Below, piece by piece: positions 15,748 through 62,106 of a stretch of 64,000 bases of DNA. The DNA comes from Psilocybe cubensis (lineage: Eukaryota). The translations under genes and the position numbers were made by a program. The stretch is taken from assembly GCA_017499595.2 (NCBI GenBank), contig CM039009.1, positions 1,860,001-1,924,000 of the forward strand, read 5' to 3'. The stretch's first letter is position 1; every line of letters begins with the position of its first letter. A model generated the notes under the pieces. That model was not told where the DNA came from. It did not search any database and saw only the letters and a program-made list of their open reading frames with translations.

Positions 15748-15796
15748 AGCATTTCAAACTCCGACACCGTCCACTGCATCAATTGGCAATGGTAGT
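15748..15796 (-). repeat. Putative right terminal inverted repeat of the large element
   Basis: 15748-15786 reverse-complements to 17394-17432 with one mismatch. It continues outward as caatggtagt (ACTAC on the minus strand, CACTA-like but lacking the terminal C). Confidence 0.7.
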
Positions 15797-17393: not shown

Positions 17394-19245
17394 CCAATTG
17401 ATGCAGTGGGCGGTGTCGGAGTTTGAAATGCTTGTTCTGCTGCTCACGTATCTTCCGACTTCGTCACTTTTAGTGACGATCCGACCCTCGCACTCACAGA
17501 ACTGCAATATTTTCTGACTTTGTTCACACTGTATTCTCTATTCTCAAAATCACTGCATAGTGTCGTGTTCGGGTTACCCGCAACCGATCAACCGGCTCAA
17601 TTATAAATTTCCTTTTACGACTTCAGTCATTGTGTCATCCATAAATATCTTTTGACTGTAAGTATCACATTCATTGTGTTTCGATTTCCTTTTAGGCTGC
17701 CAGATTGTTGTGAGATACAAGCAAAAGTGACAGTGTTGAGCTTTGTAGTAGTATCCATGGTTTCGATTTCCTTTTAGGCTGCCTGATTGTGGTGAAATAC
17801 AAGCAAAACTGAGAGTGTTCAAAGGTTTTAAGGCCTACCATTTTCTCCGGCGACACAAAAGACCTCAAACCGCGTGGACTTTCAACGGCAGAAAACTCGT
17901 CTTTTTTATCTGATTCGCCATATGCCTCCAGTATATGTGTGTCACTGCACGTTTCGGGGTTGTGGAAACGATCCGAATGGGGTCACGCTGTCATGCCGTG
18001 TTTACAAGGACCATCAGGCAAGGGAGGAGAAATACCAGCAAGGCCTGAACTATCTGAAGCTTCAAAGAGAAGCTATAGAGAGACAAGAAGACCGAATAGC
18101 TCTGGAATTAGACAACATATCCCCGAGTGACCCCATTGCTTCCTTTTCATCCTTTACCCGAGAAGCCAAATACAGAGCCGACCATAAAAAACGTCTGATA
18201 GATAATATCAGCCTAGCGCGCAGAGATGTCCAGGCCCTACTCAAAGATATCACAAGCATCGGCAAAGCTCCCATTAATTATCCACCGGCTCATGAGATTG
18301 AGCATTCCCTTCACCAGTGTTCGGAAATTCGGAAGTCTGTAGAGCAACCATCCCGAGTGCTCCATACGGCACAAACCAGCGCTCTCCGTAAAGAGCCATC
18401 CATTATAGCCATGCGAGAGGCACTGCACACAGACATCGATGAACTCGTGTCACTTACGAACGATATTGAAAGGTCGTGGATTGCGGCCTCGGTTGAACGT
18501 CAGGAATACGAACGTTTACGCCAGGGAAAGTCAGACTATAATACTGGTAAGTCTCCCTTCTACATTCATGTAGAGCAGAGTCTTACAGTTCCGCCCTTTA
18601 AGACCGGCATTTTGAACCTATATTTGTAGGGACGTCACCTATCATACAGCTCGCATCGTTGATGGTGGTCGTGTGTAATGTAATACTTGGCTTACCACGA
18701 CGTGGATGCTTCTGGCTTTTCGAAATGTGCGCGTTCATTGTACAGGGAACCGCCGAAAAAGCGTTTGGGAATGGTCGACTGACACCATATTTCATCAATT
18801 TACTCTCACTTTTTCCCCGTGATGTGAGAACCCAAACATTGATGTTTCGACTTGACAGTGAAGCCACAATATACGCAGTCTGTCCAAAATGTCATGCTAC
18901 ATATAAGCCAAGCGGAAAAACCTCTCTGCCAGTTTATAGAGAGAGATGCAACTCAAAACGATACAGCAATCGTTGTGGTGAAATACTTGTACAGCCAAAG
19001 ATCATACAAAACAGGCGTGTCCTACTGCCAATCATTCCGTATGCGGTGTATGACATTCAGGATAACCTTGGCAATGGACAGAAGATGAAGACATTAAATG
19101 GAATTATGGGACCTGTTTGGCGGAATCTCCCATTCCATATTCGATGCATGCCCCAGAACATGCTCTTGACCAGAATAATCCAAGGCCCCAAGGAATGTAA
19201 CGCTGCCCCGACCTGGAAGCAAGCACAGAGTTTACTTGTCAGATT
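17394..19245 (+). mobile_element. Second, internally deleted copy of the CACTA-like element: left TIR plus 5' part of the transposase
   Basis: TIR at 17394-17432. 19019-19063 matches 1-45 (41/45), ~19064-19196 matches ~271-396 and ~19201-19244 matches ~705-748. Confidence 0.85.
17678..17819 (+). repeat. 60-bp direct repeat, period 82
   Basis: gtttcgatttccttttaggctgcc…atacaagcaaaa…agtgtt at 17678-17737 and 17760-17819, 5 mismatches. Confidence 0.9.
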
Positions 19246-19441
19246 TCAGCGAGTCGCATACCGGCCCAGAGAATTCACGATCAAATCAAAAAGAGTAACA
19301 CGAACGAGCACTTGTGCAAGGCCGCCTAGTGGGGAAAAGATTACTGAATGTGGAAATCGTGAGGGCGTTTTGGAATTGACCTTGTCCTGTATCTCTATCG
19401 TTATATCCCCACTCCTTCTATATGTTGTGCTGTACGGTTAG
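17922..19441 (+). CDS. Truncated transposase: N-terminal Cys/His-rich and helical region retained, most of the catalytic core deleted; exons 17922-18546 and 18603-19441
   Basis: Starts MPPVYVCHCTFRGCG…HQ, then a GT-AG intron, then YAVCPKCHATY…C…RCGEIL…VLLPIIPY (the same peptide that starts the window), then fused fragments of the core. Confidence 0.75.
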
Positions 19442-19786: not shown

Positions 19787-20167
19787 TCAAACCCGACTAT
19801 ATGAGCTATGTTTCCGGCACCAGTAGTAATCGCATGATACCAACTCGTTGTAAATCCACCTTGTGCCCGATATGCATAATGGTGCATCTCCCGTTCTGCG
19901 CATCACACAATCCCTCCAATAAGCCTCCCTCTGCGTCAACAAGTCTACCTGGATGACTCGTCCCCACAATGTCGAGGATCCGCAAGCTAGTTGTCTCCAT
20001 TGACGACATACTTGTGAGCATGAGCGTAGAATGTTTAGAGTGAGGAACGTTGAGTTCTGTTTCCCTTCACCTAGCGTGTCTGTGTTCATCGAGAATATGT
20101 ATCCCAGCACGTCAAAATCGAGTCGATATATTGGGGAGTAGCTCGCCTCCTTGTCTCCATCTAGCAT
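19787..20167 (-). pseudogene. F-box-like gene fragment
   Basis: SPIYRLDFDVLGYIFSMN…LRSCSQVCRQWRQLACGSSTLWGRVI is an Agaricomycete F-box-like signature. The ORF ends after ~125 aa with no substrate-binding region. Confidence 0.65.
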
Positions 20168-20243
20168 GTACTTAGATTCAAACATCTGCATCCCGGGGTA
20201 AGTGTAGTGGGGAATCTCTACTGACTTGCATTGAAGCACAGGG

Positions 20244-21073
20244 GCGTCTGCTGCTCTGCGCAAGCGTGTCCGAAGACCTGCCTTGCTGAAGAGGCTGATG
20301 ACCGCAGAAGAGTTGGCCCCTCTTTTCAATGTATGTTGCGTGTTACTTGAATGTCTGTCATCTCATGTTCTGACGATGTTTTCGTAGAACGATGATTATG
20401 TTTGTACAGCTACTCTCTGATGCCCTGTCTTACATCTCAGACAAATGTTATTCTGCGAACAGATTGGATGGTCTGGCTTCACAAATGTTGGATACCCCAA
20501 GACCGTTCCAACTGTACGTGTTTCCATCATCACTACCTGAGACAATTCAAGTGAAATCGTGTCATTTTCCAGGCCAATCGCAAACCATATAGAAGCGAAC
20601 AACCTACAAGACGATCCTGCCACCAAGAAAAAGTTCAACCTTTTCGTAGGATCCAGTGTTGGCCCTAAGTGGAGGACAGATGGGCGAGATTCGATATGTA
20701 CGCTTCATCTCACATTTACTTCACGACTACACGTTTAGGATCGCGCGGCGGTACCCCCATCAGGTCGGAAAAGACATAGCAAAGGGAATCAATGCAGGAA
20801 GGATTGTGTTTGCAGATAAACACTTGTTCAGTGCGTCTTTTCTTTGTACCTCCTTTCTCCGACACCCCACTCACTTCCATTCCCAATGAACCAATAGTGT
20901 TTCCACAAGATCTCACATACGGCTACTACTCCCTCCGCCGCAATCACGGGGACCCATCCAAGCCTCTGGACTGGGCCATCGTCGAAGCGACCGCCATTAC
21001 TGAAGAGGGAGGTATCGTCCCCGGTGCGTCAGTGGGGGTGACACCCTAGATTCTGCAGAGCGCGGAGAAGATT
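20244..21073 (+). pseudogene. ACH1: 5' fragment of an acetyl-CoA hydrolase/CoA-transferase (ACH1-like) gene
   Basis: Six exons spell ASAALRKRVRRPALLKRLMTAEELAPLFN|NDDY|IGWSGFTNVGYPKTVPT|…KFNLFVGSSVGP…[47 protein letters not shown]…[23 protein letters not shown], matching the Ach1 N-terminus. No ATG, frameshifts near 20576 and 20667, in-frame TAG at 21047-21049, and the rest of the gene is absent. Confidence 0.9.
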
Positions 21074-22522: not shown

Positions 22523-23388
22523 CTATCCCATAGTCTGTCCGTCTGTGGTGTTGATAAATTCCATGAGCTCACGCAATACCGTGTTAGCCATTCCTATTTT
22601 CCCTCTTCTACCACAATTTGGACAGAGATATATTCGTCTGAATCCTCTCCATTTCCTTTCATATTGAGATATGCATCTATTGCAGCACCCATGTCCGCAT
22701 TCGAATGAACTAATTGGCAGTTAGTGATTCAGCCGTAAAGTCGAATAGAGAAAATTTACTGACAGTGACGAATGTTTGATGATCGATGAACATAGTGAAC
22801 ATCGTGCGTGACGAATGATCAAAGCTTTTAACTTCCATTACGGATGTCAGTAGTTAATCATTTCCTCTCTGTAAAAGCACAAACCGCGTCGAATTGGTCT
22901 GCGTACTGTTCCGCGTAACCGCTGTTGAAGGACACGTCACCCTGAAAATCACTAACATTAGCAAAATCTTTATGCTCGACGCAACAAGAAACTTCAAACG
23001 CACATTTCCGACTTCAATACCGAAAGCTTCGGTAACTCTGATGACATGTTCGATGCTTGTGACATTCTAGCTAGAGCTATCAGAAAAGGGATAGGCCTTT
23101 GTACAGGTGGCTCCTACGTTCTTGCAATCGACCAACTCCTTTTCTATCTGTTAAATGGGACATGAAACCATGGGTAAGACGATGAAGGTCACATGAATTA
23201 ACCTTTTCGAAAGCCAAGAGTTTTGATTGCAGTTCTTCTTTGTAAATTTCTCGTATGTGTTGGAGTTCTCTCAATCTCGCATCAAGTTTCTAAGTCATGA
23301 ATTACACACTATAACTAATTGACACCGTGCGTATGCTCACCGTTCTAATCATAGTATGGATAGGGAGGTTGCATACCGTTTCCGACAT
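22523..23388 (-). CDS. Second coiled-coil + C3HC4 RING-finger protein, 7 exons, ~179 aa, paralog of 6557-7533
   Basis: Exons 23388-23341, 23289-23203, 23147-23118, 23066-23004, 22941-22885, 22831-22764, 22709-22523 give …RHARCSLCSSIIKHSSLSFECGHGCCNRCISQYERKWRGFRRIYLCPNCGRRG…MG*. The start codon is less certain than the rest. Confidence 0.85.
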
Positions 23389-24924: not shown

Positions 24925-26752
24925 ATGTCTACACCAAACACTGACACGTATTTTACGTCCACCCTGCGCATGGTGGATGAGACTCGGAGTCCAATCTACA
25001 CGCCTCCTTCAACTCCGACGCTTGAAATAACATCTAATGTGCGCTCTACGCATCCGCTCAAAACGTTTTAAAACTTACCTTGTCTTCTTGCGACATAGAT
25101 ACGCCCATCTGACGACGTGGCCGTAAGAGTAAGCGAATTATTTCTTTTCCAGAAGCATTGGACGTTGATATTTAATCACAGGATGGGATTCTTGCGCTGA
25201 TGACACATCATGATGTCAGTATCATATACTAGACGTTCTTAACACTTTCCTGATACAATTTCGATACCAGACACCCGAAAGTAAATCGACGGTCAGGATC
25301 ATTCGATCTGCGTCTCAAAAGCTCGAGGGACAGGTTAGTATCTTATCCAGTCTCCGTGGTGACATTGATAGGTTGATCGCTGGCATCAGGAATCAGCTCT
25401 CAGCCCAATCATTGATAAGGTAAGCTTACTTGAAAACATGAACTACAAAACAATATATTAAATTAGAATCAGGAAAGCGAAAGGGCCCCAGTTCCCTGCT
25501 CTGCACAGAATATTCAGCAGCAGCATCGTGTAGCTGGACATACCGCCGTTCCGGGAGACACTGTAATCAGTGCCGCGCAAGTCGGAGATTCTGCGGAGAT
25601 GTATGCGTTGAGATACGCGTATGAAAACCGTCTTCACGCTGTCAGCCTTGACCTCCACCAAACAAGAGGAGAGTTGGAGGATGTGAGGATGATGCTTGCT
25701 TCTTCTATGCTTGATTATGACAAGATGGTCACCGAATACCACGAGGTAACGCAAGCATCAATCCTAGAGCGCCAACAGACCGAGGCCCTACTCGAACAAG
25801 CAAAGGTTGAGCTGACTACAATTAAAGAAGCTTATCGGCAGGGGGTGGAGCATGCATTTGCGGAACACTGGAGGTCCGAAGCGAAGATTCATAGCTTGGC
25901 AGTTGAGGTTGAAGAGGCAAGGAGGTTCATCGCGGAGCAAGCTAAGATCCAACATGGACTTGACATGCGCTTAAAGTCCGAGACTGTCTCTAGAGAGCAG
26001 ACGGACAAGAATATCGACACAATGCGAAGATGCATGGAAGGTAAGCTAAATGTTTGTCACGGTGACGCAACCTTAACTTGTCGTGCTTTAAGATATCCTT
26101 GCTCAAGAAACACAACGGTTCTTAGAAGAACGTGCGACGGCGGCGACGGTCGGAGCCGTGATCGAGGAACTCAGTACCCAGCTTGATCATGGGAATTTTG
26201 GTAAAGCAGAAGAGCATCACTTCGAGGTCAAGGCTCAAGGAACAGAACCACCGCAAGGGGCGGCCGTGCACTCGCAAAATGGCTATCATACGGTGTTCCT
26301 CACACTTCGCAATCTCATTTTCCATCTTCAAGAACTTTGCACGCATATGAGAGGAAAGGGTTTAATCATTGACTTCTTAGGTTCATTGATTTCTACCTTG
26401 AGGACACGAAACGTGGACGGCGCAGGGAACCTGGTACGAGTATACCACCATTTTTTATTCATATCAATGGACTCATATCATAATTCTCAGGCCGATATGA
26501 GTGGTGTACAAACTGCGAGCGTACGATTGTCTGACACGACTCTGTACAACCGCCGTGAGACCCTCTCAAAGGCGCAGCAGGAGAGAAACGATGAACTGGC
26601 CCAACACAGATTGACGATTAAGGTGAAAAACTTTTAAACTTTCCTGACATTTATATCTTTGTCTAATCTTCTTCCGACAGTTGCCGTGCGCCGGGTTAAA
26701 GTCAATAACTAAACCATCCAGCATCTCGGTCAAAGGAGATGAGTTAAAGTGA
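24925..26752 (+). CDS. Multi-exon coiled-coil hypothetical protein (family A, copy 1)
   Basis: Starts MSTPNTDTYFTST…, then micro-exons, a coiled-coil exon (ORF 25599-26040, MMLASSMLDY…RSEAK…REQTD) and later exons to TGA at 26750-26752. Exact splicing is partly uncertain. Confidence 0.6.
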
Positions 26753-31180: not shown

Positions 31181-31765
31181 ATGCGTCTCTCCACATTTCT
31201 GGCCTTGGTATATGTAACTGTCGGTGCAAACTCCATCGTGCAGAGGGACGGCTATCCCCGTGAGTCCCTATCTCCTCACCTTATTTGTTCATTGCTAACA
31301 CATACAAATATCATATGGGATGCTTCAATTTTGATGCACCAGCATGCTCCATTCCTTGCGTGACCAATGCCGACGTCGGAAAATGTATAACTATGACCGA
31401 TACACATTGTCTTTGTACAGACCCTACTTTCGTGAACAACACGACTCTGTGTATTTACCAGGCCTGTTCCGGTCAGAGCCTTGAAGATGCGCTCGCGTTC
31501 TCGCGCAGTCTGTGCCTCAAAGTCGTACGTGTTACTCTTAATATTTTTTGGTTTTTGCGCTGACTGAGACACTGTCGTCTTGTCTTTGCAGGGCGTTACT
31601 CTTACCTCGTCAGTGACCAACCCAACAAGCACACCCTCTTCATCCATATCGAGCGCAATTTTATCCAGCTCTGCTGCAGCAACTTTTCACAGTGCAACCT
31701 CCAACACCATTATCAGCGCCACCCTCGCTGCTGGCCTCACAGTTCTACTTATCTTAGTTCAATGA
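31181..31765 (+). CDS. Secreted, probably GPI-anchored CFEM-domain protein; exons 31181-31259, 31343-31524, 31592-31765
   Basis: Signal peptide MRLSTFLALVYVTVGA, eight-Cys CFEM pattern PPCSIPC…KC…DTHCLC…LC…AC…LC, S/T-rich stalk and hydrophobic C-terminal tail. Confidence 0.9.
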
Positions 31766-32850: not shown

Positions 32851-34207
32851 ATGTCACACAGCGTCAATCGAAATCCTCTTTCGACGTCTTACGGCGCAGA
32901 TTTCTCCCCCTCACAGTCTCCAAAGTTGTTAGGACCGCAGACACGCGTTAAGTCCGTTTTGTGTTAAAATACGTTAAATTCTGACGCGTTAAATACAGTT
33001 ACGTCGTTCTAAGCGCGCAAAGGCGAGTAAATGCTGTTTGTCTGCGCCATTATATCTTTCTGATTTAACCACTATAGAGTTACAGACCCAATAAAAGATT
33101 GGAGGACAGGGACGCGTCTCAGATGCACCGGACCCAGTCTGCGGCCACATATCTTGTTGGTCAATCTGTTGAGAAACAAGTAAGTTTCCCTGGTCCGTGT
33201 ATTCCCAAGATATGTGTTGATATCTGACTCGTTATATTTGTGGCGGCTGTTTGATTGCAGAACGACAGTCGGATGTTACTTGACCACCAAGTGCCCGATA
33301 GTGTACAGTCAGTATCGCATAAGCAGGCGGACCTAATCCCGGAGACAGAGGTAAGAAAATTCTCTGCCTTCCTCTGTGTTCTCACTGTTGACGTGTTTAG
33401 TCCCAGATTAATGAATTAAACCAACTACATGTCAGTTGTCGAGACATGCATAATGGGCCGTGTGCTGGCCTTCAAGACATAAGACGCGACTACGAGAAGC
33501 ATATTAATGCTATTAATCATTACCGTGAAATTGAGAGAAAGGAATTGAACGAGACAAAGATGATGCTCACTTCTTCCATGCTAGACTATGCAACACTGCT
33601 CTCCGAATTCCAACAGGCGCAAGATGCATCAGACTCCCAGAATCAATACTTTCAAACAATTATCCATAAATTGTCGACTGAGCTAGATGCGACAAAGGCT
33701 ACCTATTGGAAAGACGTCCAGTCTATTCTTCTTGATTACCAAAGGTCCGAGGCAAAGCTTCGTATAATGCACGACGAGGCGATTGCAGCGCAGAGGACCC
33801 TTGAAGAGCGGACTAAAACCCTAAATGAGCTGGAAATTCTCTTGGAATATGAGGGAGCAGCTCGTGAGCAGCTCGACGAAGACCTTGCTTATGCACAAAA
33901 TGCTCTGGCCAGTGAGTGTGAGGTTACTGCTCAGACTCCGGCTAACCAAGGCTGTATTTCAGGCGCCCTTGCTCGCGAATTGCGCCAGTCCGAAGCCCAA
34001 CAATCTAGAGAACGATTAGTCGAGGATTTTATTACAAGGCTAATCGCCCAGATTTCCGATGCTACGCACGTTGATCAATGTGACATCTCGTCGCACCAAA
34101 CCCCCGAGGCAATCGATGTTCTAGCAAGGTATCGTACGTTGGCGGCAATTATTGGAGAATTTTCGACGGTTATTGAAACAAACAAGGGATTGACTACGAT
34201 GATGTAG
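32851..34207 (+). CDS. Multi-exon coiled-coil hypothetical protein (family A, copy 2)
   Basis: ORF 33446-34207 aligns without gaps to 25599-26040 (YE…EL…MMLTSSMLDY…EL…RSEAK…REQLD). Similar 5' architecture, with a first exon followed by a 24-nt micro-exon. Confidence 0.65.
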
Positions 34208-40980: not shown

Positions 40981-42304
40981 TCAATTAACATCCTCATCCT
41001 CATCCACAATCTCGATAGCTACACACCAAAACATCCTTCCCCATGGCTCCTTTCCGTTCCTATCTTCTCCTCCTTCCTCCTTCCGCACCCGCTCACAACA
41101 AACAAACCGAACCGGCTGTCCATCCCAATACTTCATCAAGTCAAAAGACAATCCCCCGGGCAGTTGCAGGAGCTAACGTCGGCGCAAAACTGATAAACCC
41201 ATAACAAAAATCGGTCGTGATCACATCCTCCGGGCCGAAGACCTGCCGGCGGGCTTTTTGCGCAAAGTAGCTGCGCCGCTGCGACGCTGTCTAAAGCGTC
41301 TGCAGTTTCCGCTCACGCTTCATACGGCGTTCTCCTTGCTCGGACGACGAAGAAGAGCCGGTGCTAAGCGTACTCCGCGCACGCTTCGGTTTGACTTTGC
41401 GCATGGCGGATTTGACAGAGAAGCTCGAGCCGCCGGTTGAGGATCCCTTCGAGCTGGATCTGGCGGTCGATAGGGGACTCGGGCTTACCGGTGCAACGTT
41501 GTCGGAGGAGGAGGACGCAGAGCGGAATGATGTTCCTGATGAGCTGGATGCAGAATCTCCCTCATCGAGCTCATCAGAGAGGGCAAGGTACAGCCCAGAG
41601 TTCCTGTCTTGGATGGACTGGTTTGCTGAGAAGGGGGGTAGCATACATGAGGAGGAAGAAGGTGGAATCCTCGTGTGCATGAAATGAGGCATGGTCGATA
41701 TTAGTGGTGAAAGTGCCCATGGCTTGGTGGAAGATGTGAGGTCGTGTTTGAGAGTTGGGTCGATGTAGCTATAGAAATGGAGATCAGTTGAAGTTAAAAA
41801 TATAGAGATGGAGAGAGATGGAGAGAAAAATAAAATGAGCGTACTGCATGAATTTAAGTACCGCGCTTGTTCCCCATGGTAATTTGAGAGGCCTATCGAA
41901 TGTGTTTCCGAATAAAATGTCGTCCGCTGAATAGAGTACGAGGAACCGGCCTTCACACCACCCAACGTAAAATAACACCGAAAGTCAGCACACGGAATCA
42001 CACGAATAACCCTTCCCCTTCTCGCGACTCGAACATCGTGCAAATTCGAAATACCAAAAATAGGCAAACCAAACTCACCTCGGACAACGATACTCCATGT
42101 AACACCGCCGCGATCTTCTCTCTTGAAATATTCAGACTCGTGTACTTTTCCCTGTTCGTCCGTCATGCCCTGAATCTGCGCTACCAATTCACCTTCAAAC
42201 AAATCGGAGCGGATAGGGTGTGAATGTGGAGTGTTGACGAGGTGTGTTATGGGAACCATCGAGGAAGGAGATGTACCTGCAAGGACCCGGAGTCGAGGAG
42301 CCAT
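40981..42304 (-). pseudogene. DUF1769-family gene with disabling mutations
   Basis: MAPRLRVLAG…FEGEL…TWSIVVRG|RFL…ADDILFGNTFDRPLKLPWGT…|YIDPTL…PWALSPLISTM…TTDFCYGF…LPGGLSFDLMKYWDGQPVRFVCC. In-frame TAG at 41291-41293 and a +1 frameshift near 41170. Two introns are retained. Confidence 0.8.
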
Positions 42305-42761
42305 TAGAGTATCAACTATGTGGGGTTAGGTTAAAGGATTGAAGTAGCCGTCGATGCGGAAACGGTGAGCGTGTACAATTTTGTGTGGACGCCCGCGATG
42401 TGTTAATAGTACTGGAATGATATGGCGCTCCTGGCGGGTAGGTGTACCGGGTGTGAAAGGGGACGTAGACGGTGAAATATCCACAGTTATGATCGGTTAT
42501 GTATGTATGTGTACCAGTGCAAATGAGGCTCCCCAGTCTACCACCCCAATTTGTATTGAGGCTGAAGAGCGTTTTGGATATCGTCGTCAACTGGAATCGA
42601 AAGGCCAGTAGCGGCACACAAGAAGACAATCCCAAAGATGGCGACAAAGAACAAAGGTGAGTCAAAGTGCGACAGAAGGGACGGTGTCAGACGGTCGCTG
42701 CAGAATTGCACAGACAAAAAATTCACGAATGAGCGAAACTGCAAGCCGTTGCAGACAAGAT

Positions 42762-42918
42762 AGAATGGTTTCTTCTCCTCGTCGGACATGCTTTTCCATA
42801 CTTTTCCGGCTTGCTTGCTGAGCTCGTGTTGCTGGACCTCCCTGGGTGCGCGCATACAATTGACATACCACGAGAATGCATTGGCGTTTGGGTGCGGTAT
42901 GGGTGGTGATGAGTTCAT
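42762..42918 (-). pseudogene. Degenerate HMG-box fragment
   Basis: PIPHPNANAFSWY…QHELSKQAGKVWKSMSDEEKKPFY matches the HMG-box consensus, but helix 3 is missing or interrupted. Confidence 0.65.
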
Positions 42919-44106
42919 GCACTAAAATATAGAGCGGGTCTGTAGGGTGTAGCTTTGGACGTTTATTTTGAAGCACAAACAAAAAAGAGACTCACTCATA
43001 ACAAATACGGGGGCCTGCGGGATGACAATAAATTGTATCACGCACTATTCTGAAGAAACGTGTCCCTTCAAATCAATCCACATTGTATAGCTGAGAGTGC
43101 CAGTGTTAGCAAAATATCACTGTACAAGAAAAGTTATAAATCCATCTCCTTCCACTGTTTACCGGAAGTCAAAGAATCAAGTTATATGCTATGTACTTAG
43201 TGAAAACGTTACCTTCGACTTCAAGAAAAAGGAAAATAGATACACGTAGACCTTTAAGACAATGATAAGGAGTTGAAATGGATACACTCAGGTTGTGTTA
43301 TGTCGCTACGAAACTCACTGAAAAAGCGACTCACCACTCACTATACCTTGGCATTGATTAATAAGCGGTCACTTCTCAGTGAGTCACTTACTGTTGAGTG
43401 ACTCACTAAGTGACTAATATATAATACATTTTATGAATTTGAAAATATTCTTTTGCACAAAAAATATCGGCAGAATATATGATTGAAAATTCTCCAAAAT
43501 ACTTGACAGAAACATAACGTATATCTAATTTAAAAGTTGTGACAAAAGCGTCACGAATTTATCTAAAAAATACGAATCAATATTCTTTTTATATACTATT
43601 ACATATATTAGTACAAAATATCACCAGTAAAGTCGAAAATTATAGGTTGAAAATACATTTTGTATATGATACTTTTTTTGAGGCAATATATAAAACATAT
43701 TTGGCAACAAAATATCAATTTTTAAACACGAAACATGTTTCTAATTCGTATATTTTCGTCATATACGGATAGCTGCCAGCAGTGTGGACCATTGCGCTAC
43801 CGAGATGAGTAGAGTATTCATTTATGCAAGAGGTGGGAGATTGACAGCATGAAATAATGTTACAATAACAGTACGTATAACAAAAAGAATGAACATCATA
43901 AATTACCAATGCGAGTGTAAGTCGTGTAAGAGCTAGAACGGAAAAGACATCGATGAAAAGTGGGTTGCGATGGGGATAAGAGGCAAAGGATGTATGTACT
44001 ACGTGATATAGCGTGATAGTACAGTAATGGATTAATAGCATAACAATCGTGCATGGATTGGGAAGGGAGAAAATAAAAGAGGGGCAATCTAAAAGCTTCG
44101 AAGCAT

Positions 44107-48750
<4,644 letters not shown>

Positions 48751-50482
48751 TCAAAGTCACGCGATCTGCGCCCCAGGCCTCTCCAGAGTCCATCTCATCT
48801 TATCCGATAACTCCTTCATCCACAGTCCTGTCAACAAATCTTTCTAACACGCCCACTATTGACTTGTGTGAAAGGATCGACCTGGGTCCTGGGTACCAAG
48901 AAATTTCACACATCGCCCGTGCTATGTTACTGACATTTGACAGATCGTCTGGCAGCACAGGCGCTCGTCTTTAAACTTGGTTCCCACCATATAGGATCTC
49001 TATTCCATCGATGAAAAACGATACCTCCCATGGTGCAAAGGCGTGGAAACCCAGAGTTACTCACACGCATGTTTTCCTTGCAAAGAAAAATTTCCCGGTT
49101 AATGTACGTTGCTTTGACGGTCTTTTGAATGAATCCCTCACACCAATTCAGAGCTGCGCCCGAAAATATCGGTACGTATTTATGCAGATCCACCAACGTC
49201 AATTAAACTTCGCCTTCAGCAATATTGAACGCACAGAATGAAATGCACACATTCTTAAGACTTGAAGACGTCAAAAGAGACTTCATTTCGAAGAAAATCT
49301 GCCCTTTCCTTGCACTGTTGGCTCCCAAAGGGGTCATCTCATTTCGTAATCTGGGAAGTATCATACATCGCCGCCACCCCTTTCATTTTCAGCATTTCAA
49401 CGATCAAATCGTCTGGGATTTCTGCTTCACGTTCCAGCGTTACTCTAATTCTTACATACACCCACTCAACCCCCAACTCAATTCACGCCAACTTTTGCAT
49501 TATGCGATGCAACGTCACAAACAATGCAATGAATCCATCATCACGCGCCAGGCAACAGATTTCACCTAATAGTTGATCTGTCAAGGCATTCAATTCCGTG
49601 GCGTATTAGTCGCTTGAACTTTACAAATGACTTGCCTGCTGCCAGTGCTAATGCCAGCTACATACTGTGCTGTGTACTGTACGTCTGTATGCCCCATCTC
49701 GCTCATTGCCCGTGTCACATCTGCTCAAATTACGCATTTTCAGGGAGGCGAGCAAGGGCGCGACGCCTACACATCAATTCTCGATTCAAGTTTCGACATA
49801 CATGCGGACATACCACTATAGCACCTGCCTGTCTCACTGCTACGTTACTTGTGCCTCGGTATGTAACTCCTCCATCTTCCTCCATCTCTTCTATGAATCT
49901 GACAGGTACGCTGTCAATCGAAGTCCTCCTCGGGACGGCTCCGCTCAAATCTCTCCAGACGGCTCGGCCGGCCTCTGTGAGCCAGCTAGCCGGCGTCCCA
50001 ATCTGAACCTGAGCTGAAGCTAAGTTTGGCTAGCACAAGCAGCTCACGAGTTCTCTTATCAAACCAACGACATCGGAGCCGTACGACAATAATCAACACC
50101 ATCAACCCGACACAATTCATCGACACTGTAAGCACCTAATCGTGGTACATCACGCCTGCTAGCCTACAGACCTCAGGGGCTGGCCACCACCATACCTTAT
50201 CTCTGTCGATCCAGATTCCTCACCACCACCATTTTCACTATCATGATCACCGTGATAACCCATCTTCTCCACTGAGGTAAGTAGCTACTGCACAGATCCT
50301 CTTCTCTACTGTGCTTCTCTTTGGAATCTCTAGGAGCTTTGCCTCTCCTTAGATTGATCAATGATGGCGTGAAAACGTTTCGTGCAGAAATATTTGGCTG
50401 AGCCTCTTCGACATCTCTTGATCTTGGTTATGAATTACGGCCACCGAATGAATACTTCCAGGTTTCACAGTGGATTTTTAAA

Positions 50483-54630: not shown

Positions 54631-55782
54631 ATGAATTATTATTCTGCTTCAAGTTCGCGCATCGCAAAGGCCCCCTATGTCAGGATCCACACTCCGTCTT
54701 TTGATGGGCCATTCCCCGGGCAAGAGTTCCCGTCTTATGATGGCTACGATGGTGCGTTGTCATCTCCACTGTTCACCGCACAGCAAAGTGACGCTTGTTT
54801 GTTACTCCAGATATCCATGCGCCTCTTTCACAGTGGATGAGCACCGGCCAAATGCATCCCGAGTCTGATATTTTTGAATCTGGTTAGTTTATAACGCAAT
54901 GCATATTCAACAATTTTTGTCATTTCTAATGCCTCATTTACCTCCAGCCCAATGTCCTCCAACCTTCAACGCCGCTCAATTTGACGGTGGCTCATATTAC
55001 TCTCAACCAGACGATTCGATGGACAGCAATATTTTTAGCTGGCCTTACGATGGCGCAAGCGGCTACGATGCTTCATTTTCTTCCATACCGGAGCCGAGCA
55101 CGTTCCCAAATGCATTCTCACCATCGGTCTCTGTGGTATCATGTTCTCCTCGCTCAGAAAGTGGGTTTTCGACGCGTTTATTCCCATTCTCCGTTGTTTA
55201 TCATCTGCTCCAGGTTTATCACTTTCACCACAACCCCAATACCACGAATACAACTCCTCGTTCAACTTTGACTTCACCAATGCCATTCCACAGCAATTCC
55301 CTTCATCGTCATCATCGTCATCGTGGTCACAGACTCTCACTGTCGATCATTCTCCCCGCTCATCAATGTCTCACTCACCGGCACCTTCCTGCTCGAGTAT
55401 CGATGCCAATGAACATAAGCCATCTTCAAAATCGCGTGATCCCTCCCCCTCCCAGTCGCAGGCAGAGACCGACGCGCAGAACCAACGCCGTCGCTTCCCA
55501 TGTGTCATCATTGGATGTGAGAGAAGATTTACCAGCCAGTACACCCTAAAGGTGCACATGGAGGCACACAAGCCCAAGCCCCGCTCTTCGTTCCCCTGCA
55601 CTCTCGGCTGCTCTGAGCGTTTCTCGAGACAGCACGATCGCCTTCGTCATGAAGTCGCGAAACACGGCAAGGTCTGCGAGTTCTCTTGTGAAGACTGTGG
55701 CCGTTTCTTCTCCACGAAAAAGACCTTGGGGAACCACAAATGTCCTGTGGCTCAGGGAGGCACTCGGTGGGTCAATAATTGA
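54631..55782 (+). CDS. C2H2 zinc-finger transcription factor (3 fingers); exons 54631-54751, 54811-54882, 54948-55160, 55214-55782
   Basis: FPCVIIGCERRFTSQYTLKVHMEAH, FPCTLGCSERFSRQHDRLRHEVAKH and FSCEDCGRFFSTKKTLGNHKC. Canonical introns keep the frame. Confidence 0.9.
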
Positions 55783-60446: not shown

Positions 60447-62106
60447 ATGGATAGGCCACGCCGTAACACCCGCGCGCCGATTAAGGCGCCACAGCTCATC
60501 GTACCATTACCGGAACCGAAGGCAGAAGAAGAACCATCCGGAAACGACACAAACCCGAGTCCTACTACGCGTCCTGCACGAGTCTACAAGCGCAAGACTG
60601 CACCGGATGGGGAAGAAAGAGCTAAAACTGCAGGGCCACCAATCAACCATGAGAAATTTTTCAAAACACTTATGCAGAGTTCGAAAAGCCAGTTGGTATC
60701 AATGGATATGAACGTAAGTGCATAGAATAGCAATCCACCCATGCCCATGTGTTGAACATCCGCCGGTTTTCTGCATCCATATGTTTCATCGCTTCCCCTT
60801 TCCTCGTTCATTCGGTCCGCTTTGTCGCTTCAAATTCAAGGAATGAAGGTTGCAGGGTAAAATTGAACTGATAAAAAGTTCTCATCCATATTTGGGTTTG
60901 ATATAGGACATCATCAATGCTAATACATGGGAGGTGCTCTCTGAAGACGCCAAGTTGCATTTGAAGTCGTTGCTCCCCCCGACAGCATTCAAAGATTGGC
61001 GGGAGACCCTCGGTGAGGATCACCCAGCGCTGGAGGGCCTATCTATGAAGGTGGAGCGAGCGAAAGAGATGGTTGGAGCCAGATCAGTGGATATGCCAAC
61101 AGAGAATGGGAAGGATCAAGAAAATGCGATGGTCGTCGATGACGATTCTCTCCCACAATCCATGCCGTCCGACTCCAACACATGTTCTGCTCCGAATTCT
61201 ATATCTAATTCGCTCATGCCGACACATCCCCTTTCTTCCTCTGAGATTTCCTTGTCTTTTTTCACCGATTCCCACTTCCATGCCGCTCTTCGAACATTCC
61301 AGGACCATCTATATCTCAATTACTTTTCCGACACACACGCACGAAAAGTTGCAGAGTACACAGACGGAATCATATCAGGTAAACTTGCCGCTCCATGGAA
61401 AGACGAGGTCTGGGAGCGTGACAATCCAGTGTCTACACCATCAGTGGCCGCTGAGCTCGTGCCTGCTGGGTCTGGATCCGCCGCACTTTCTGGTGCATTA
61501 GCCGGGTAAGCTCACTTTCATTGTAAAATTCAATCATAACCTTACTTAGATATTATTCAAAGCGGTGCGAGTCAGGTAAAATTAAATGTTCTAGCTAAAC
61601 GAAAAGTCATTCGCGTAGGTGATGTGATTGCGTACAAACGCACCTTCTCAATGCTAGATATCGTGGTTGAGAAAGATGTCATCGTAAGCCCGTTCCCGCT
61701 TCTCCTTTCATTCTAGTCTTTAGTAATCTCAAAATATTGTCAGGTACAATCCATACACCCCAAGACGCACGCAATAGCAGTGCTCACGTCACGCGGTACT
61801 ACCAAAGAGCTTCCTAAACATGTCCTTTCTTCTTCATCCATGGACATTGACGCTGACGCCTTGTCCTCCGGACCTGCAACCCTTTCGTTAACTATCAATA
61901 GCCCTACGATGCTTGAAACTGCCCTGCTGGATATCGACGCGCGCGTTGATAAAGCCCGTCGCCCGAATGGCAACGCATGGAAGGCATTTAATGTTTACCG
62001 CTATCGCGCAGGGACGGACTACAACCCTTATGACGACAGAGGAGGCCGTGAACTCCATGGTGCACTTTTTTATTTGAGAGCTGAATATTACAGCGAAAAT
62101 TATTAG
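60447..62106 (+). CDS. ASX-homology (ASXH/DEUBAD) domain protein; exons approx. 60447-60713, 60908-61505, 61563-61683, 61744-62106
   Basis: LMQSSKSQLVSMDMN|DIINANTWEVLSEDAKLHLKSLLP…FFTDSHFHAALRTFQDHL…PWKDEVWE fits the ASXH pattern. GT-AG introns link the ORFs. Confidence 0.75.

Follow-up and report, generated by a model that had tools for sequence, protein, structure and literature searches.

The locus at 23388-22523 on the minus strand (gene B) is probably a real agaric gene, related to the gene at 7533-6557 (gene A) by an ancient duplication. It lies in a window that comprises the whole stretch of DNA analysed, 64,000 nucleotides of Psilocybe cubensis contig CM039009.1. The predicted protein of about 179-191 residues would consist of a fast-evolving N-terminus of about 105 residues, a C-terminal C3HC4 RING and a tail. 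The best reading of the product, by analogy with established RING proteins, is a small RING-HC E3 ubiquitin ligase.

The gene B model was built independently of the original prediction, and the same procedure was then applied to 7533-6557. Gene B was read from an ATG at 23388-23386 to a TAG ending at 22523. The seven-exon model contains exons of 48, 87, 30, 63, 57, 68 and 187 nt, which are separated by introns of 51, 55, 51, 62, 53 and 54 nt and encode 179 residues. Exon 1 (23341-23388, 48 nt) begins at a predicted start codon and ends at the donor GTGAGC, followed by the 51-nt intron. An alternative first exon of 12 nt (23388-23377) would use the donor GTATGC. Exon 2 (23203-23289, 87 nt) belongs to the model with a 30-nt exon and ends at the weak donor GTTAAT. 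The candidate 30-nt exon itself (23118-23147), which is uncertain, requires two poor donors, GTTAAT for the intron upstream of it and GTAGGA at its own end. In a competing form exon 2 extends to 153 nt (23289-23137) and ends at the donor GTTGGT. The 63-nt exon (23004-23066) has the donor GTGCGT and precedes the 62-nt intron, which contains a CTAAT branch site. The 57-nt exon (22885-22941) follows, and then the 68-nt exon (22764-22831), which encodes a helix-like segment in front of the RING and the zinc ligands C1 and C2. The intron inside the RING (22710-22763, 54 nt) reads GTCAGT...CACTAAC...TTAG. The last exon (22523-22709, 187 nt) encodes C3, H4 and C5 to C8, the motif CPNCGRRG, a tail of 25 residues that includes an aliphatic helix-like segment, and the TAG. 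A CTRAY branch motif, read by eye at the intron ends, is present in four of the six introns. Depending on the model, the product is thus assembled from six or seven short exons.

Gene A (7533-6557) lies on the same strand, 16 kb from gene B. Its eight exons measure 33, 45, 75 (or 66), 30, 69, 57, 68 and 184 nt, its introns range from 51 to 85 nt, and its product has 183 or 186 residues. Both spliced ORFs are intact, and in the models of 179 residues (gene B) and 186 residues (gene A) the introns measure 51-76 nt. Exons 1 to 4 are located at 7533-7501, 7448-7404, 7350-7285 (extended to 7276 if a GC donor is used) and 7199-7170, and exons 5 to 8 at 7107-7039, 6977-6921, 6869-6802 and 6740-6557, all on the minus strand. 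The 69-nt exon stands where gene B has 63 nt. The third exon ends at a weak donor, GTGATT or GCAAGA, and a stop occurs at most 27 nt beyond it. Gene A is therefore forced to splice near the place homologous to the end of the 87-nt exon in gene B.

Continuity of the reading frame alone was weak evidence that these loci are coding, since under lenient GT..AG rules an open spliced path was also found in 95 of 200 dinucleotide shuffles of the upstream part of gene B and in 64 of 200 for gene A. When all donors were required to be GTNNG[TC] and all acceptors YAG, exactly two models of gene B remained, compared with no model at all in 200 dinucleotide shuffles. Both strict models contain the 63-nt exon, and both contain the 153-nt form of exon 2. 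Gene A gave no model under the strict rule, nor when only a G at donor position +5 was required; it needs either GTGATT or a GC donor. The model used to score codon usage had a small training set, 16 long ORFs from the window, and some of these are transposon ORFs. The N-terminal exons scored 0.062 per codon in gene B and 0.085 in gene A, compared with 0.063 for the long ORFs and -0.063 for short open stretches. A null set of short open stretches, with stops excluded, reached the observed value in 19 of 5000 draws for gene B and in none of 5000 for gene A. This likeness to the long ORFs of the window gives some support to the N-terminal exons of both genes being coding.

The contigs of two runs, X1 and X2, which were selected by species label and whose kind was guessed, cover neither RING gene. 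They match the window only at 15.9-17.3 kb and 19.9-21.1 kb, with 90-95% likeness. As a separate observation, an F-box gene (PF12937, E 1.7e-7) was found as a minus-strand ORF at 19790-20362, within 19790-21072. The contigs match 19866-21072 at 90-95% with GT..AG joints at 20330/20463 and 20697/20739, and those from the F-box region are in addition connected to the opposite strand at 16.9-17.3 kb. These joins suggest either paralogs that are expressed or a different strain in which the region is arranged otherwise.

The RING domain is the part of the two genes that is most clearly preserved. In the spliced sequences, the ligands of both genes are spaced C-x2-C-x12-C-x-H-x2-C-x2-C-x16-C-x2-C and G-R-x-G comes next, with CPNCGRRG in gene B and CPRCGREG in gene A. 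The RING-HC consensus spacing is C-x2-C-x(9-39)-C-x(1-3)-H-x(2-3)-C-x2-C-x(4-48)-C-x2-C. The ligand order C-C-C-H-C-C-C-C and the spacing of both spliced genes fall within this consensus, which places them in the C3HC4 class. Ligands C1 and C2 (CSLC in gene B, CQLC in gene A) are encoded by the 68-nt exon and the other six by the last exon, which in both genes reads in a different genomic frame. Thus, the complete RING exists only after splicing. The intron that splits the RING, 54 nt in gene B and 61 nt in gene A (6801-6741), interrupts a CTT leucine codon after its second base in both genes. The original prediction had placed a phase-2 intron inside the RING of both genes and had stated that all eight zinc ligands and CPxCGRxG are kept; both statements were confirmed on the spliced sequences. 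In the alignment of the two 68-nt exons, positions L1, H8, C11, L13, C14 and I18 are invariant. Both proteins carry aliphatic residues in the tail and among the ten residues that precede C1. When only the half of the RING encoded by the last exon was compared with Pfam, PF00097 (zf-C3HC4) scored 21.8 bits for gene B and 21.4 bits for gene A against a cutoff of 21, and PF15227 scored 25.1 and 23.1 bits, respectively, which is below its cutoff of 30. The pattern C-x-H-x2-C-x2-C...C-x2-C matched only twice in the six frames of the window, at genes A and B. Neither this six-frame motif search nor an HMM of the exons common to both genes found a third copy in the window.

The original prediction also held that exon sizes of 30, 57 and 68 nt match exactly between the genes. 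This was upheld for the 57- and 68-nt exons. In both genes the 57-nt exon lies directly upstream of the 68-nt exon (22941-22885 in gene B and 6977-6921 in gene A). The corresponding arrangement, which consists of an AG, a 45-80-nt intron and an open exon of 57 nt with an AG before it, was found by chance at 441 of 127380 window positions (0.0035), and the common structure of 57 and 68 nt is unlikely to be accidental. None of the 19 residues of the two 57-nt exons is identical. For the 30-nt exon the match is weak. Each gene allows the reading of an exon of this size (23147-23118 in gene B, 7199-7170 in gene A), with none of 10 residues identical. A chain of an intron, an in-frame exon of 30-120 nt, an intron and a 30-nt exon arose by chance upstream of 112 of the 1081 AG sites that were sampled, and the 153-nt exon competes with it.

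An alternative that deserves serious weight, although we consider it less likely than not, is that the 3' half of gene B (the 57-nt, 68-nt and last exons) is real while the 5' half is spliced otherwise, with a single 153-nt exon in place of the 87- and 30-nt exons. This exon would run from 23289 to 23137, end at GTTGGT and be followed by a 70-nt intron. The product would then have 191 residues, and the match of 30 nt would be a coincidence. The two strict models agree with this arrangement, and the ORF at 23289-23080 stays open across the supposed 55-nt intron. The frequency with which 30-nt chains arise by chance and the lack of any identical residue between the two 30-nt exons point in the same direction. 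Against it, gene A splices near the homologous place and likewise does so with a weak donor, GTGATT or GCAAGA. Also, with the 87-nt form of exon 2, a Y-x2-[ED]-L-Q motif is present in both genes and is equally far from the end of the exon in each. The 87-nt exon, anchored at its donor end, shares 4 of 22 residues with gene A, a score reached by 351 of 20000 shuffles, and this anchoring was chosen post hoc. The weak donor of gene A and the aligned motif mildly favour the reading with the 30-nt exon.

Outside the RING, the two genes have diverged extensively. The RING block, which begins with the 68-nt exon and extends to CGRxG, aligns without gaps and has 21 of 59 residues identical, a score that none of 20000 shuffles reached. 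The alignment of the whole proteins has 44 identities among 160 aligned residues (z = 22), and when 2154 ORFs of the window were compared all against all, the last-exon ORFs matched each other with an E of 5e-10. The N-terminal parts (105 and 113 residues) showed no significant similarity (z = 0.43; 621 of 2000 shuffles reach the score), nor did the tails (310 of 2000 shuffles). At the DNA level, blastn with a word size of 7 returned only chance matches of 9-18 nt. The statements of the original prediction that most other residues differ and that no DNA similarity is obvious were thus borne out. Within the RING block, pS is 0.80 and saturated, pN is 0.44, and different codons are used for 14 of the 21 identical residues. 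The dN/dS ratio could not be computed because this pS is above the saturation limit. Residues that are conserved while the synonymous sites are randomised, in two multi-exon ORFs that are both intact, are the trace that long purifying selection would leave. The purifying selection on the RING that had been proposed is supported in this indirect way, through the saturated pS, the pN of 0.44, the eight retained ligands and the intact ORFs.

In blastp, the two proteins were each other's best match at 58.9 bits, by a modest margin. The next match was a protein of 721 residues (P0001, UniParc UPI000610C244), at 51.6 and 48.5 bits, and animal TRIM-like RINGs scored 43-52 bits against A and B. As these animal RINGs score almost as high, the case for paralogy of A and B is made mainly by gene structure, not by the alignment score. 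The proposal of an old paralog is supported by the identical codon and phase of the RING intron, the 57- and 68-nt exons, the spacing of the RING, the common architecture (a variable part of about 105-113 residues, then the C-terminal RING and some 25 residues of tail), the shared strand and the mutual best blastp match. This evidence supports the reading of A and B as a real paralog pair that arose by an ancient duplication.

Relatives beyond this pair were sought in several collections. A word-index protein search with the last exon of gene B ('longer' and 'near' lengths) or of gene A ('longer' lengths) gave no match; each query, comprising half a RING and the tail, has limited sensitivity. 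Neither product appears to be in that protein collection, which is in line with the description of gene B as hidden, and gene catalogues appear to have missed both genes. A two-sequence profile of A and B was searched with HMMER against 1.84 billion representative proteins and yielded 12 matches at E <= 1e-3 and none at 1e-10. Eight of the 12 were looked up, and the four with a recorded organism are animal proteins. No clear relative was found among the 1.84 billion proteins, the best match being P0001 at an E of 6.1e-7. A metagenome scan gave seven loci, all of them chance zinc-ribbon matches on mostly prokaryote-like ORFs, and thus no relatives. The ESM Atlas returned generic zf-C3HC4 clusters only. 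P0001 resembles A and B in that it has two tandem modules, each consisting of a helical stretch followed by a RING with the spacing x2, x12, x1, x2, x2, x16, x2. Its residues 520-686 align with residues 7-176 of gene A at 23% identity (51.6 bits). It differs in being four times longer and in having a low-complexity linker, and the similarity is weak. P0001 is a possible distant relative and serves as a lead only. In addition, P0001 could represent two tandem members of the family joined in one gene model. The earlier claim of a real family and not a chance reading stands for two members, and beyond these it extends to this one possible distant relative only.

Three other explanations were weighed against the reading of A and B as functional host paralogs. 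One is that the two are unrelated RING genes which are alike merely as all RING-HC domains are. The identity between the two RINGs (36%) is in fact no higher than that to the best animal TRIM-like matches (35-40% over 45-54 residues), and the absence of significant similarity outside the RING would be expected from such genes. This explanation leaves unaccounted for the same intron codon and phase, the identical 68- and 57-nt exon sizes with their chance probability of 0.0035, the agreement of all loop spacings and of the architecture, and the location of the genes on one strand 16 kb apart, and we consider it highly improbable. It is also unlikely that one or both loci are unexpressed relics, that is, recent pseudogenes of a once functional RING family. 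Both ORFs are intact over seven to eight exons with usable splice sites despite saturated synonymous sites, and eight ligands are kept in both genes. These features argue against decay, whereas decay would agree with the location of both genes in the half of the window that contains transposon relics. It would also agree with the results from the 15-billion-protein collection, in which the searches found neither product nor any protein sharing three 5-residue words with the last exon of gene B.

The remaining explanation assigns the two RING genes to CACTA (tnp2) transposons, as passengers or accessory genes, instead of to the host, and it is suggested by their neighbours. A CACTA/tnp2-type transposase is encoded by two long ORFs at 1-2552 on the plus strand (PF02992, E 1.1e-10), which are cut by the window start and lie 4 kb from gene A. 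A decayed transposase fragment at 18843-19438, homologous to 1-800 in several frames with 52-61% amino acid identity, lies 3 kb from gene B. In 1-30000, neither RING gene was found to be enclosed by terminal inverted repeats or by long repeats, and the left end of the element would fall outside the window. Since the search found no enclosing repeats, an origin as transposon passengers is possible yet unsupported. The flanks of A and B have no sequence in common other than the transposase fragment, with no sign of a segmental duplication beyond it, and the loci themselves lack the DNA similarity expected of copies of a recently active element. We therefore regard this origin as very unlikely, and the reading of A and B as an ancient pair of host paralogs is retained.

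Several other features of the window were noted. The left half contains the CACTA-type transposase, its decayed fragment, the F-box gene and a CFEM gene. An inverted repeat at 15748-15786 and 17394-17432 (39 nt, 97% complementary, with 1.6 kb between its arms) possibly represents the two termini of a small DNA transposon, and two 60-nt direct repeats lie near it at 17678-17819. Two paralogous long ORFs at 25467-26183 and 33401-34204, both on the plus strand, are 30.6% identical over 144 residues (E 1e-16) and have no Pfam match. The CFEM-domain ORF (31264-31560) is located between them. Conserved host genes are found in the right half of the window, at 41294-49000 on the minus strand and at 55039-55779 and 60907-61506 on the plus strand. 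They include Duc1, an HMG box, a JmjN/JmjC/PHD-like demethylase with many exons, a C2H2 zinc finger and ASXH.

By comparison with established RING-HC domains, the RING of A and B would bind two zinc ions and recruit an E2~ubiquitin conjugate, which would make each protein a putative E3 ubiquitin ligase. The divergent N-terminal part would select the substrate. PMC7752041 describes how the segments before and after the core of TRIM RINGs form a four-helix bundle for dimerisation, and how the RING-flanking segments of TRIM32 are required for activity. In A and B, the aliphatic stretches that directly precede C1 and directly follow C8 resemble these dimerising helices. Because of this resemblance, the active form would probably be a RING dimer, either a homodimer or a heterodimer of A and B.

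A more far-reaching interpretation would be that A and B represent a largely unannotated, mushroom-specific family of small ligases, with a strongly constrained, TRIM-like, self-associating RING, an N-terminal target-binding part that has diverged beyond recognition, and exon lengths that have become frozen. We consider this improbable. If it were true, the pattern would be that of E3 ligases engaged in an arms race, with transposons, mycoviruses or non-self as examples of the opponent, and the two paralogs might act as a heterodimer. The pair adds one more set of two putative ubiquitin ligases, and its importance would rise if the family proved to be large, lineage-specific and fast-evolving. 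In PMC10282164, the F-box, BTB and RING gene families are described as expanded in mushroom-forming fungi, and the A/B pair fits the RING expansion reported there. As the pair shows, fungal gene catalogues can overlook small genes composed of many short exons. The RING counts of mushrooms, already reported as expanded, may for this reason be underestimates.

Among known systems, the closest solved structures are those of animal TRIM RINGs. TRIM69 (6yxe) was the best match (E 3.2e-4), in an alignment that runs on into the aliphatic segment of the tail after the RING, and it was followed by TRIM39, RNF125, TRIM5 and TRIM34. The RINGs of TRIM69, TRIM39, TRIM5, TRIM34 and TRIM25 have in common with A and B the CGHxFCxxCI core, a long second loop and CPxC. 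The aliphatic N-x2-L-x2-L-[VM]-E that follows the RING of the animal proteins is also present in A and B. TRIM proteins gave the best matches to A and B both among solved structures and among the 1.84 billion proteins, with weak E-values (3e-4 and worse). TRIM or RBCC proteins have an N-terminal RING followed by one or more B-boxes and a coiled coil, whereas A and B are fungal proteins in which the RING comes last, with no coiled coil after it. No B-box was found in A or B, as the spliced products contain no second cluster of Cys and His and the Pfam search returned no B-box family. The C-terminal position of the RING and the absence of a B-box rule out A and B as TRIM proteins.

In Bre1/RNF20-RNF40 and RNF8, the N-terminal part is helical and charged, and the RING-HC, which acts as a dimer, stands at the C-terminus. 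These proteins resemble A and B in having a C-terminal RING after a helical region, and they are much larger proteins. None of them was present among the profile-search matches or the closest solved chains. A heptad contrast test did not demonstrate a coiled coil before the RING, with the observed value reached by 417 of 1000 shuffles for gene B and by 40 of 1000 for gene A.

The broader group of RING-HC ligases (PF00097 and PF15227) agrees with A and B in the C3HC4 order, in the proline after C7 and in the aliphatic residue between C1 and C2. The usual RING-HC pattern has a basic residue directly after C8, whereas A and B have G-R-x-G there, together with a long second loop of 16 residues. 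A and B further differ in that the RING stands at the C-terminus of a very small protein whose remainder matches no family. A and B are an ordinary kind of gene, and as putative RING ligases they are new representatives of a known type.
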